From assembly GCA_963741205.1 (NCBI GenBank), contig CAVUHW010000026.1, forward strand, positions 1 through 64,000: a stretch of DNA of 64,000 nt, in the 5' to 3' direction. Below, in pieces: positions 18,887 to 25,479 of the stretch; position 1 is the stretch's first letter, and every line of letters starts with the position of its first letter. The position numbers and the translations under genes were made by a program. Under the pieces are notes generated by a model that was given only the letters and a program-made list of their open reading frames with translations, was not told the origin of the DNA and ran no database searches. The stretch comes from Nitrospirota bacterium. Its GTDB lineage: Bacteria > Nitrospirota > UBA9217.

Positions 18887-20028
<1,142 letters not shown>

Positions 20029-21258: not shown

Positions 21259-22410
21259 TTATATCCTCTCCACCAATTTTTTGAAGTGCCGGCAGTTTTC
21301 CACAAGGTCCGGGCCGTGTTTGAAAAGCCCGCCGCCGATTAAAAAGATCAGATCCTGGCCGTAGGTCTCTATCATCTCCGGAACGCGGGCAAGACTCATG
21401 CCCCCTCCCGGCGCAGGGAAGATAGACGTCAAATGCCCCATGGATTCCGCGGTCCCCTGCACGATCTCTTTGCACTCCTCCCTGCTGAATGAGAAACGGC
21501 CCCCAAAGTTGGGGAAGATGGTCGCATCCGCGCCTGCGAGGCGCGCGAGCTGGCCGAAGATGACCCCGTGGGACATACCTCCCGTGCCCGTGACGAAACT
21601 CCCCTGGAGAGCCGGGTGCGCGAGGACCGGGAGCGCGATCGTATCGTCGTCCGCCAGTTCCCTCATGAGATCATAACCGACAAGCCCCGGCGCGACCATA
21701 AGCCCGCCTGCGCCTGCGTCCTTCGCGATCCTGGCTCGTTTCATGACCTCTTTATGCGGCGCCGTGATGTTCGCGATATAGAGAGAAGGCAGTCCTGTTT
21801 CCCTGCTCGCCCGGTGAACTGCGTCTGCGCAGCGCTTGACCCGTTCCTCGAAAGGCGAGCAGCACTGGTCCGTGAGGCCGTGGTCGTCCTTGATCATGTC
21901 CATGCCGCCAAGGGCAAATTGATAAGCAAGGTCGGAAAGCTCCCGGCACGAAAGCCCCATGGGCTTCACCGCCGTGGACAGGAGCGGCCGCTTCGATATC
22001 CCGAGTAGCTGTCGAATCCCTTCCCTCCCGAACCGCGGGCCCTTGAAGTGACCGAGCAGGGACCCAGGAAGATCGAGATGCTCCACCCTGATGCCGGGCT
22101 TAATGCTGATGTTGCCGAATATGACGTTCAGGAGCTGGGTCAGCTCGCCGGCGGCTATCTCGACGGCAAAGCTGATTACAGCCTTGAAGCTCTCGGCATC
22201 CCATCGCTCGAACGCTTCGATCCTGCCGAACACCTGGTCCCTGATCACTCCTTCCGGCACTTCGTCGGCCGGGAACTCGATAGTCTGCTCGATGCAGATA
22301 TCCTCAGCCTTGGCGCGTGATTCCTTCTCGCTGCCGAGCAGACGATAGGTGACGGAAAAACGATCTCCGGAAAAGAGTGAGGTTGGTGTGCAGGTTTTAT
22401 GGATGATCAT
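21259..22410 (-). CDS. RuBisCO-like protein (form IV, R. rubrum RLP-type)
   Basis: TAVKPMG, MIKDDHGL (KDDH not KDDE), LAHPA, FPNFGGRF, PAPGGG, LIGGG. Confidence 0.9.
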   Translation of the reverse strand: MIIHKTCTPTSLFSGDRFSVTYRLLGSEKESRAKAEDICIEQTIEFPADEVPEGVIRDQVFGRIEAFERWDAESFKAVISFAVEIAAGELTQLLNVIFGNISIKPGIRVEHLDLPGSLLGHFKGPRFGREGIRQLLGISKRPLLSTAVKPMGLSCRELSDLAYQFALGGMDMIKDDHGLTDQCCSPFEERVKRCADAVHRASRETGLPSLYIANITAPHKEVMKRARIAKDAGAGGLMVAPGLVGYDLMRELADDDTIALPVLAHPALQGSFVTGTGGMSHGVIFGQLARLAGADATIFPNFGGRFSFSREECKEIVQGTAESMGHLTSIFPAPGGGMSLARVPEMIETYGQDLIFLIGGGLFKHGPDLVENCRHFKKLVERI

Positions 22411-22440
22411 TGAAGGGACCTTGCATGGGGTTCGCTATTC

Positions 22441-22917
22441 CTATTCTTCTTCCCCGCCGTCTTTTTTAACTTTCCCTTCCAGCTGCTTGTACTTGCGGAA
22501 AGCGACGGAGAGCGTCGACGATTCGGAGATCGCACCGGCTACGAGAAGCGTATCCATGATCTCTTCGAGCGACGCGCCCTCATTCATGGCCCGCCGCAGG
22601 TGGGCCTCGAGACAGTGGTCGCACCGAAGAGCCGCGGAAGCGCCGATGGCGACGAGTTCGGCTGTTTTCCTGTCCAGAGAGGACGGCTCTTTATATATGG
22701 CCATCCCTTTGAGGATAAAGGGATTGAAGTTCCGGGGGCGCTCTTTCAGCACTTTCAGGAGAAAACCGAGGTCTCCTTTCCGGTCCCTATGCAGGTCCGC
22801 AAGGGCTTCGGCCAGTTCTGTCTTTCCGAGCAAAGCCTTGGCTTCGCGAATGATCGCTGATATTGGTTTCTTTTTGCTTGTGGAGCCTTTGTTTTCTTGT
22901 TTTTTCTTATTCCGCAT
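22441..22917 (-). CDS. CMD/AhpD-like protein with CxxC
   Basis: LDRKTAELVAIG...ALRCDHCLEAH...GASLEEI. Confidence 0.85.
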   Translation of the reverse strand: MRNKKKQENKGSTSKKKPISAIIREAKALLGKTELAEALADLHRDRKGDLGFLLKVLKERPRNFNPFILKGMAIYKEPSSLDRKTAELVAIGASAALRCDHCLEAHLRRAMNEGASLEEIMDTLLVAGAISESSTLSVAFRKYKQLEGKVKKDGGEEE

Positions 22918-22922
22918 TGACT

Positions 22923-24909
22923 CTACAGCGCCTCCGCCTTCGCCGTGCTGTGCACGGCTGCTATGCGCGCCTCGGCAAGCTCGTCTTCTGATATCGAAAA
23001 TTGCGTCCCGACCATGGCCTCCACCGCTCTGATCAAGGCCATGGCGTCCATGCCGTACTTTTTAAGCAGATACTGCTTGCTCGCCCCGTGGGCATAGGTA
23101 TCGCGAAGGCCGATGCGGAAGAGCTTCTTCGCGATACCGGACTCCGCCATCTGTTCGGCGATGATGCTTCCCAGGCCGCCGACGATCGTATGGTTTTCCA
23201 TCGTAATTACGCCGTGTCGTGAGTGTGCAATGGCGTCCATCACGGATTTGTCGTCAAAGGGCTTCAGGGTCGAGATATGCATGTGCTGGATTGATACGCC
23301 GCGCTTCCGAAGCGCCTGCACCGCCCTCATCGCCTCCTCGGTCATGATGCCGCTGGTCAGGACCGTGATATCATTGCCTTCCGAGATCACCCGGGCCTTC
23401 CCTAACTCCATCGGGCCATCAAAAAGCCGCGGGATCTCGCCCCGCAGCATCCTGACATACACCGGCCCGTTGATCTTCTCCACAACATCGAGCACAGTCT
23501 CCACCTCGGTCGCATCCCCGCATTCGAGCACGGTCATATTCGGCAAGGCCCGCATGATAGCTACGTCCTCGATGGCCTGATGGGTCGCGCCTCCGGGAGT
23601 TGTGACGCCCGGAAGAAAGCCGATCATGCGGACGGGTAAATTCGGATAGGATACGGACATGGCAATCTGGTCATAGGCCCGCCGATAGATGAAGACCGCG
23701 AAGGTATGCACGAAGGGGATGAACCCCTCCCGTGCGAGTCCCGCGGCAAAGGAGAGCATGTTCTGCTCGGCAATGCCCATGGACAGGAACCTGTCGGGAT
23801 AGGCGTTGCGGAAGAGATCAATCTCGGTCGAGCTCGTAAGGTCCGCCGAAAGCACGAGCACCTTCGGCTTGTCCGCGGCCCATTTGACGAGGTTCTTCGC
23901 ATGCACGCGGGTCACGATCTCGATGCCGGTACTTGGCTTTGGCCTGGGCCTTGCCGGATTCCTGAACGGCCTGGACCGTTCCGCCCAGTTCCTCAAGGGC
24001 AGTCCGGTAGCGGTTTTTTTCCTCTTCCGAGGTAAACCGGACATAGTGCATCTTCGGCGCCCTCGCCTTCAGGACATCGATCCCGCGCGCGGCGTCGGTG
24101 TCGCACAAGACAACCACGGGCCGGCCGTCGGGAGTCGGTCCTCCGGCCTCTGCCAGCCGCTTGATGTCGTGTCCGTTTACCCGGAAGACGCGGCAACCAA
24201 AGGCCTCGAGCCTCTTGTCCAGCGGTTCGATATCCATGACCGTGCACATTTTCCCGTCGCACTGGAACCCGTTCACGTCAACGTAGATGATCACGTTGTC
24301 GAGCATGTGATGCGACATGGCCTGGAGCGCTTCCCACGTCTGGCCGATCTGAAACTCGCCGTCGGACATGAAGACGAATACCCTGCCCTTCTCTCCCTTT
24401 CTCTTTCTGGCCATGGCTACACCTGCCGCCTGGCTGATCCCCTGGCCCAGAGATCCGGTCATGGTCTCCATGCCCGGCGAATGCTCCGCGCCGATCATCT
24501 CGACCGAGCTTCCGTCTTTGTTGAACTGGAGAAGTCCTTCCTCCGCCATGCGACCCGTCTCGATCAGTGTCGCATAGAGAACCAGGGCATACTGAGCCGG
24601 AGAAAGAAAGAACCGATCATGGTCAGGCCCCGGTCCGTTGAAGGCTGCACCGGTGAAATAATCCGGGTTATGAGGTCCCGGTACGCCCGGGAAGGGTCTG
24701 GGAACGAGAGGCGCATCGATGCTGCCGAGGTCCATGACCTTGACATAGAGGGTCGCAAGGATTTCCGCAGACGAACAAGCCTGGGAGAGATACCCGCCGT
24801 TGTTCCTGATCGTATGCTCCAAAACTCGTTTCCGGATGCCGGCAGCGACGCGTTTCACGTCGTCCTGCCACAGAAGGGCGCCCTTTTTCGTTCCACTTGT
24901 CTTCATCAT
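22923..24909 (-). CDS. Transketolase-like ThDP enzyme, N and C halves probably fused (one extra base near 23931)
   Basis: TGSLGQG, SDGE...N ThDP motif, GIAEQNM, RAYDQI, GATHQ, ENH..GGLG; no stop or new start at the junction. Confidence 0.85.
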
Positions 24910-24938
24910 TCCTTAAGTTCTCCTTAAATATCGCGTCG

Positions 24939-24967
24939 ATTATCACGCAAGACCAGACGGGTGTCAA
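24939..24967 (-). promoter_or_regulatory. Sigma-70-type promoter for the TK-CMD-RLP operon
   Basis: TTGACA-N17-GATAAT on minus strand. Confidence 0.7.
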
Positions 24968-25100
24968 GGTGAAAATGCCGCGGGAAAAACGGTGGGTTCA
25001 ATGTTGTTTCTTTGCATTCTTAAAAAAAGGGAGGCCCTTTTTCTCAGGTATGCAAATTATTGTCATACTCGATTTTCCAAATAATCAGGCATTTAAGTTT

Positions 25101-25116
25101 TGGCATGACTGATGCA
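25101..25116 (+). promoter_or_regulatory. Sigma-54 (-24/-12) promoter
   Basis: TGGCATGACTGATGCA: GG-N10-GC, 40 bp upstream of the 25156 ATG. Confidence 0.7.
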
Positions 25117-25155
25117 ATTCATTGGGCAAGACTGAACGAAAGGGAGGACAAAAAA

Positions 25156-25479
25156 ATGAAGAACTCAATCTCAAGACAAACGGCATATATCGGCGCGGGA
25201 TCCGGCCTGGTTCTTTTCGCAATCTTCGGGCTGCTCCCCGGAAGCCTCCTCGGCGGGGCTGCGGGAATCAAATTCGCCGGCATGATCTTCGGGCTTCCGC
25301 TCGATCCGGGCATCGTCTCGAGGGCCATCGTGCTGGCGTCCATGCTTGCAGGCGTGCTGGTCGCAGGAATTGCAATAGTAACCGCAGCGTCAGCCGCGGG
25401 CTGGCTTCTCGGCCGGGTAATCGAGGTTACCGCCCACCACAAAGTTTCGGAGACAGTGGCTGCGGTGAACCATAAATAG
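25156..25479 (+). CDS. Small Gly-rich membrane protein (107 aa), paralogue 1
   Basis: GGAGG RBS; IGAGSGLVLFAIFGLLPGSLLGG; hydrophobic throughout. Confidence 0.8.
   Translation: MKNSISRQTAYIGAGSGLVLFAIFGLLPGSLLGGAAGIKFAGMIFGLPLDPGIVSRAIVLASMLAGVLVAGIAIVTAASAAGWLLGRVIEVTAHHKVSETVAAVNHK

Follow-up and report, generated by a model that had tools for sequence, protein, structure and literature searches.

Methylthioadenosine (MTA) and 5'-deoxyadenosine must be disposed of by every cell, and to our knowledge only a handful of routes for their disposal are known. What function, then, is served by an operon in which the gene for a RuBisCO-like protein (RLP) is accompanied by that of a divergent transketolase (TK)-like enzyme? 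This question is raised by a three-gene operon in a 64,000-nt stretch of Nitrospirota DNA (positions 1 to 64,000 of contig CAVUHW010000026.1, assembly GCA_963741205.1; the whole stretch is hereafter called the window). The pairing of an RLP with a divergent TK, which occurs in at least four named phyla and appears to exclude the cupin partner of related RLPs, points to one more disposal route and to a thiamine diphosphate (ThDP) enzyme with chemistry not yet described. Based on sequence comparisons, we consider it reasonably probable that the operon would provide the downstream half of an oxygen-independent salvage of MTA, and probably also of 5'-deoxyadenosine, along a branch that has not yet been described. 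Such a route would assign a role to a large group of RLPs that currently lack one, and the reading is directly testable because a cultured carrier of the pair exists (Devosia submarina JCM 18935). The three genes are as follows.

22923-24909, minus strand: TK-like gene, whole extent, split over two frames as assembled
22441-22917, minus strand: AhpD/carboxymuconolactone decarboxylase (CMD)-family CxxC gene, 158 aa (Pfam CMD, PF02627, 64 bits against a cutoff of 23; TIGR00778, 40.9 against 27.8)
21259-22410, minus strand: RLP gene, encoding a DeepYkr-like form IV RuBisCO-like protein, 383 aa (Pfam RuBisCO_large, PF00016, 104 bits against a cutoff of 30.1)

Conservation of the TK-RLP pair

Our phyletic analysis of 41 related genomes, in which orthologs were accepted at 57% identity or more for the RLP and 59% or more for the TK-like enzyme, revealed an RLP ortholog in 21 genomes and a TK-like ortholog in 20, all of the latter being among those 21. 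The single genome with an RLP alone was 74% complete, and none of the 20 relatives without an RLP carried the TK-like gene. The carriers named among these relatives were uncultured Nitrospirota. At the level of gene neighborhoods, 64 non-duplicate loci were retained after eight duplicates had been dropped. Of the Nitrospirota loci, 22 extended at least 3.8 kb beyond the RLP on its upstream side; in 18 of these, the TK-like gene lay upstream of the RLP at a distance of 12 kb or less, and in the four exceptions it was found elsewhere in the same genome. Ten more loci offered too little sequence to be counted. In several relatives, the TK-like gene and the RLP were separated by mobile or unrelated genes encoding a DNA methylase, VapBC, or a hybrid-cluster protein. 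The pairing extended to distant loci, whose RLPs were 41-60% identical to that of the window: in 11 of 12, a two-piece TK of the same subfamily ended no more than 53 nt before the RLP. These distant loci belonged to Myxococcota, Alphaproteobacteria including Devosia submarina, Acidimicrobiaceae, and unclassified metagenome-assembled genomes (MAGs). An earlier reading of the window from its letters and open reading frames (ORFs; hereafter the sequence-only reading) had regarded all three genes as one unit and had suggested comparing their neighborhoods across genomes; it is the TK-RLP pair that is conserved across phyla, whereas the CxxC gene is optional.

TK-like enzyme versus cupin

The closest solved structure to the RLP of the window was 3qfw (E 6e-74), itself an RLP, which likewise has the KDDH motif and which we take to be the DeepYkr RLP of R. 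palustris. In this motif, His stands in place of the RuBisCO Glu that follows the carbamylated Lys, and three outgroup sequences had Glu at the position of this His. KDDH and all other motif blocks compared were common to the window RLP and all 11 aligned cupin-linked RLPs, confirming the earlier statement that KDDH occurs here as in the R. rubrum-type RLP. This shared motif set suggests that the window RLP may isomerize 5-(methylthio)ribulose-1-phosphate, as its cupin-linked sisters do. The protein scored under every NCBIfam cutoff. Two other family assignments were rejected, namely an MtnW-type enolase (NF007095, 224 against 409; TIGR03332, 175 against 514; the KDDH motif; no MtnB-type gene found) and an apiose-type RLP (OiaX, 81 bits against a cutoff of 700). 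In a quick tree of 61 RLPs, built after three fragments had been dropped and comprising no named reference sequences, the cupin-linked alphaproteobacterial RLPs formed one clade with a support of 100 and the window RLP fell outside it, with the backbone of the tree unresolved.

A survey of 401 alphaproteobacterial genomes, with RLP matches accepted at E 1e-30 or better, brought out the relationship between the two partners. RLP matches were present in 18 genomes, two of which (48% and 41% identity) also contained a TK-like gene. The RLPs of the other 16 (36-41%, tblastn) had a cupin within 164 nt in every case and no TK within approximately 7 kb. Similarly, among 20 relatives longer than the RLP itself, 17 (43-50% identity) were fusions of a cupin with an RLP, and none was a fusion to a transketolase. 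With a single alphaproteobacterial query, no cupin was found in the genome carrying the window, an empty answer that is weak for an 84% complete genome. These patterns support the proposal that the TK-like enzyme takes the place of the cupin and excludes it. The cupin-RLP fusions (P0243-P0260), which are common in metagenomes, were 696-780 aa long, some 200 residues over the sum of the two domains.

Altered active site of the TK-like enzyme

To describe the TK-like enzyme, RLP-linked TKs were aligned with the ordinary transketolases of the same genome and with human transketolase; the E. coli residue numbers and the residue roles used here follow the transketolase literature. All aligned RLP-linked TKs kept Asp155, Asn185, His261, Ser385, Glu411, His473, and Arg520, while Arg358 was represented by Arg or Lys. 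The ligands of ThDP and of the metal, together with the activating Glu, were thus kept, whereas four canonical substrate residues were lost: His26 was replaced by Tyr and His461 by Leu in all aligned RLP-linked TKs, Asp469 was replaced by Gly with an accompanying one-residue deletion in the same sequences, and His66 was replaced by Gln in those of Nitrospirota. The N-terminal part displayed GGY instead of the canonical GH, and an SDGE metal site. Two further features were common to the aligned RLP-linked TKs, namely an invariant Cys (QCDG) adjoining the metal site and an insertion of approximately 28 residues in the N-terminal part. The C-terminal tail ending in AKAEAL (window 22926-22955, minus strand) was conserved from Nitrospirota to Alphaproteobacteria and Actinomycetota, and it may serve in docking or as an active-site lid. 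Against the transketolase equivalog NF004559, the C-terminal part scored 229 bits and the N-terminal part 167, compared with a cutoff of 488, and the enzyme remained below all NCBIfam cutoffs. These alterations bear out the earlier description of an atypical transketolase. Because the same genome further holds an ordinary TK (438 bits), a split TK, a third TK, and dxs, the RLP-linked TK is an extra enzyme.

Genes associated with by-product salvage

The gene content of the distant clusters and of the genome itself linked the pair to salvage. In one distant cluster (L059), the order was an MtnA-like isomerase, a class II aldolase-SDR fusion, a small MIase-family protein, an APH-family (MtnK-like) kinase, a further MtnA-like isomerase, TK-N, TK-C, and the RLP, with a SorC regulator and RbsD/FucU nearby. 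The isomerase beside the Devosia pair scored 449 bits against the MtnA equivalog cutoff of 279, and at another locus (L058:314-2260, plus strand), an ORF of 648 aa fused an MtnA (IF-2B) domain to the N-terminal part of the TK, followed by the C-terminal part and the RLP. The genome carrying the window encodes both mtnP (TIGR01694, 321 bits) and mtnA (TIGR00512, 443 bits), each over its cutoff, and a Pfam scan around the two genes revealed housekeeping genes. MtnK was not found in this genome, and class II aldolase-family genes, the MtnB type included, were found neither there (84% complete) nor in 12 of 14 congeners. Within the family, a class II aldolase was present in four of the six RLP-less genomes versus 6 of the 19 RLP-bearing ones, a contrast that can only be suggestive, given that related genomes are not independent samples. 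A PfkB-family kinase gene beside the mtnP of the same genome (L106:3797-4739) consisted of two overlapping ORFs, of which the family scan covered the second. No RNA run was among the public sequencing runs matching the window, whose shares were all 0.15 or less.

Proposed route and comparison with known systems

In the route that we propose, MtnP and MtnA, whose genes are present elsewhere in the genome, would supply 5-(methylthio)ribulose-1-phosphate or 5-deoxyribulose-1-phosphate. The RLP, judging from its shared motifs and its context, would convert these to 1-(methylthio)xylulose-5-phosphate or 1-deoxyxylulose-5-phosphate (DXP). The TK-like ThDP enzyme, which would stand where other bacteria have the cupin methylsulfurylase, would then attack C2 and cut the C2-C3 bond to release glyceraldehyde-3-phosphate. 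The C2 fragment left on the cofactor would carry a good leaving group; speculatively, methanethiol would most likely be expelled from it, leaving an acetyl unit by phosphoketolase-like chemistry, or else the fragment might be released as (methylthio)acetaldehyde or acetaldehyde. The CxxC protein would probably act as a thiol-disulfide partner, perhaps handling a methyl-disulfide or keeping the conserved Cys of the TK reduced, a role that is likewise speculative. In its most specific form, the proposal makes the TK-like protein a new ThDP lyase that would split 1-(methylthio)xylulose-5-phosphate into glyceraldehyde-3-phosphate and a cofactor-bound C2 unit expelling methanethiol, as phosphoketolase expels water, and leaving as acetyl. 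In combination with MtnP, MtnA, and the RLP, such a lyase would constitute a complete oxygen-free methionine salvage that feeds all ribose carbons back into central metabolism and has a wide distribution across several phyla, with the Nitrospirota CxxC protein playing the part of glutathione in the cupin route. We advance this detailed version tentatively, since we judge it to be possible but doubtful.

The proposed route shares steps with two known pathways. In Rhodospirillum rubrum and Rhodopseudomonas palustris, the MTA-isoprenoid shunt proceeds through MtnP, MtnA, a DeepYkr RLP, and a cupin methylsulfurylase, according to PMC5893883. The likeness lies in the presence of MtnP and MtnA in the genome, the motif set of the RLP, and the oxygen-independent design, and a thiol-dependent step is plausible. 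The difference is that a TK-like ThDP enzyme is found here in the cupin's place, that the RLP falls outside the cupin-linked clade, and that, in place of DXP, the route would be expected to yield a C2 unit along with a triose phosphate. The dihydroxyacetone phosphate (DHAP) shunt employs MtnK or MtnP, MtnA, and the class II aldolase Ald2/DrdA, as described in PMC6079011 and PMC5893883. With it, the proposed route would share the entry steps and the underlying logic, in which a ketopentose phosphate substituted at C5 is split to yield a C2 aldehyde and a triose phosphate, and the aldolase-SDR fusion beside the pair in distant clusters adds to the likeness. Unlike that shunt, the cut would be made here by the RLP and a ThDP enzyme, yielding glyceraldehyde-3-phosphate instead of DHAP, and the genome yielded no class II aldolase.

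The component enzymes can be compared in the same manner. Canonical transketolase, DXP synthase, and phosphoketolase share with the TK-like enzyme the fold, the ligands of the cofactor and of the metal, the activating Glu, the Arg/Ser that bind phosphate, and a pair of catalytic His residues, and they differ from it in the changes at His26, His66, His461, and Asp469, the extra Cys, the insertion, and the tail. The CxxC protein has the CMD fold and the CxxC...H motif of the AhpD/carboxymuconolactone decarboxylase family, but it belongs to a tight Nitrospirota subfamily with a Lys-rich N-terminus, occurs only with the TK-RLP pair, and has no adjoining peroxiredoxin. In the parts of the full-text literature covered, including PMC6079011, PMC6302742, PMC10663253, PMC13474568, PMC7895386, and PMC5893883, we found no description of an RLP paired with a transketolase in salvage, which agrees with the earlier characterization of the route as undescribed; the original 2012 papers or RLP reviews may nonetheless mention it.

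Weighing of alternative explanations

Several observations weigh against the salvage reading. The Nitrospirota operon itself lacks a gene for a kinase, an isomerase, or a transporter, and the TK-like gene is broken as assembled. The CxxC protein was not found in over half of the pair-bearing genomes, one of which is 100% complete, and the one distant locus of the 12 that departs from the pattern, in a gammaproteobacterial MAG, has an RLP without any TK-like gene. The co-occurrence of the pair with mtnA and mtnP, which had been suggested as a check, failed to discriminate between genomes: mtnA was present in 17 of 21 RLP-bearing and 19 of 20 RLP-less genomes, and mtnP in 19 of 21 and 19 of 20, respectively. 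The comparison is uninformative because both genes are nearly universal in the sample. No mtnA match was obtained in four pair-bearing genomes, including two that are 97% and 100% complete. O-acetylhomoserine sulfhydrylase, which would recapture methanethiol, remained under its cutoff, with best stretches of 174 and 119 against 495 bits. Furthermore, genes for a CUT1-type sugar ABC importer, a glyceraldehyde-3-phosphate dehydrogenase (GAPDH)-like protein, and a methylglyoxal-synthase-like protein were noted by sequence reading, with no family search, beside the pair in some Nitrospirota (L016, L017, L022, L023, and L037), and this neighborhood would fit ordinary sugar catabolism as well.

One alternative is the breakdown of ordinary pentoses or nucleoside ribose: a sugar of the ribose-1-phosphate type would become ribulose-1-phosphate, the RLP would convert it to xylulose-5-phosphate, and a normal TK would feed the pentose phosphate pathway. 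The ribose-type ABC importers and RbsD/FucU mutarotases of distant clusters, the sugar importer and GAPDH-like gene near the pair in some Nitrospirota, and the retention of the cofactor and phosphate ligands, His261, and His473 in the TK are all compatible with this explanation. We nevertheless hold it to be quite unlikely, given that an ordinary TK and a split TK are already present in the genome, that the RLP-linked TK has lost His26, His461, and Asp469 of canonical TKs and reaches less than half of the transketolase equivalog cutoff, that sister RLPs are tied to a methylsulfurylase-type cupin through adjacency and fusion, and that a neighboring isomerase exceeds the MtnA cutoff. Alternatively, the operon may act on another phosphosugar, for instance one from an imported pentose that is branched or bears a different substituent at C5, the likeness to MTA salvage being one of enzyme families only. 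Other RLPs serve acid-sugar and apiose breakdown, according to PMC6302742, importers lie beside many clusters, and the RLP falls under all NCBIfam cutoffs; the match to the apiose RLP model is very weak, however, the motif set is that of cupin-linked RLPs, and MtnK-like and MtnA genes as well as an MtnA-TK fusion accompany the pair, making this explanation unlikely in our judgment. The salvage reading, which the sequence-only reading had also proposed, is partly supported, namely by the TK in place of the cupin, the MtnK-like and MtnA context, and the presence of MtnP and MtnA, while the distribution of mtnA and mtnP contributed nothing to it and the CxxC partner contributed little.

Frameshift in the TK-like gene

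The sequence-only reading had described a three-gene operon; the genes are real, but it had overlooked that no single open frame covers the TK-like gene in this assembly. Its N-terminal part lies in an ORF at 23818-24909 and the C-terminal part in an ORF at 22923-24044, with the following division.

23932-24909, minus strand: N-terminal, diphosphate-binding part (Transketolase_N, 70 bits)
23931, minus strand: extra base splitting the TK gene, a probable assembly indel, missing in contigs from two runs
22923-23930, minus strand: pyrimidine-binding and C-terminal domains (Transket_pyr, 112 bits; Transketolase_C, 77 bits)

By frame arithmetic, deleting one base at 23931 unites both parts in one frame. 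The gene is a single ORF of 662-689 aa in relatives of the same genus, and in a relative from another family two distinct genes, coding for 300 and 351 aa, specify the enzyme. Contigs assembled from two public runs of different studies each lacked one letter at 23931; they derive from relatives 92-95% alike to the window and were used for the indel only. Two other genes showed comparable breaks. The dxs gene of the same contig (C26:172269-174111, minus strand, outside the window) was distributed over two open frames covering model positions 3-201 and 192-612, and an aldo-keto reductase gene of the window (18906-20025, minus strand) was distributed over overlapping ORFs at 19516-20025 and 18906-19649 that matched successive parts of the Pfam model.

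The break could indicate that the operon is decaying here, with a real frameshift that leaves the TK a pseudogene. The extra base relative to the contigs from the two runs would agree with decay, as would the several in-frame stops in the TK-like and RLP genes of a relative (G019). Since dxs, which is essential, and an aldo-keto reductase are broken in the same way, we read the break in the TK gene as probably an assembly indel; both halves of the TK are still 79-90% identical to intact relatives, and the contigs that lack the base come from relatives that may belong to other strains. A pseudogene is therefore very unlikely in our estimation. The stops in the relative, whose genome is 100% complete (C15:1033231-1035521), amounted to four TGA codons in the TK-like gene and one TGA and one TAG in the RLP gene, and they may reflect either decay or sequencing error.

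CxxC protein

The CxxC protein had approximately 420 close homologs, and every named one came from Nitrospirota. Its N-terminus is rich in Lys, and C99, C102, E104, and H106 were invariant in all 20 homologs aligned. Among the 41 relatives, 9 of the 20 pair-bearing genomes encoded it, as against none of the 21 others, and in eight of these nine carriers its gene directly followed the TK gene; it was absent from all 12 distant TK-RLP loci. Because only 9 of 20 pair-bearing genomes and none of the distant loci have it, the protein is an optional, lineage-specific accessory of Nitrospirota, linked to the TK-RLP pair but dispensable. The earlier proposal that it serves as a thiol/redox partner is accordingly weak. 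A complex prediction for the two TK parts and the CxxC protein, run with our own alignments, returned a score of 0.00 and was counted neither way. Where the TK lies elsewhere, an Orn/Lys/Arg decarboxylase gene was observed to adjoin the CxxC gene (L053:1303-2787 and L040:6-893), a neighbor that possibly indicates a link to polyamine synthesis, a source of MTA.

Operon layout and neighboring genes

The remaining features of the operon are listed below.

24967..24939, minus strand: sigma-70-like match TTGACA-17-GATAAT, 11 of 12 consensus positions, a pattern match alone
24925-24920, minus strand: ribosome-binding site AAGGAG, 10 nt ahead of the ATG at 24909, identified by reading the sequence
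22612-22623, minus strand: CDHC, the CxxC...H redox motif of the CMD protein, residues 99-102
21880-21891, minus strand: KDDH motif of the RLP, residues 174-177

The coordinates give gaps of 5 nt from the TK gene to the CMD gene and of 30 nt from the CMD gene to the RLP gene, in agreement with the spacing described previously. The TTGACA-N17-GATAAT site reported earlier was likewise recovered, with 29 nt between the end of its -10 hexamer and the start codon of the TK gene. It is to be regarded as a pattern and no proof of a promoter, because two sites of such quality were seen in the region versus 1.4 expected by chance; of 13 relatives, four carried a site agreeing at 10 or more of the 12 positions in the 160 nt ahead of their TK gene. 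A family scan of the operon and its neighbors revealed no cupin, kinase, or transporter gene, which extends to the neighbors what had been noted for the operon, and an Rfam scan of the whole window gave no matches and hence recognized no riboswitch. The neighbors encode an AraC regulator, aldo-keto reductases, a 139-aa protein assigned to no family, and a DEAD helicase. None of these genes was seen with the pair in 16 loci from relatives, and the AraC regulator and the aldo-keto reductases were rejected as parts of the system for this reason. The 139-aa ORF (25060-25479, plus strand), which has no Pfam family and is divergent from the operon, may encode a membrane protein, judging from a reading by eye.

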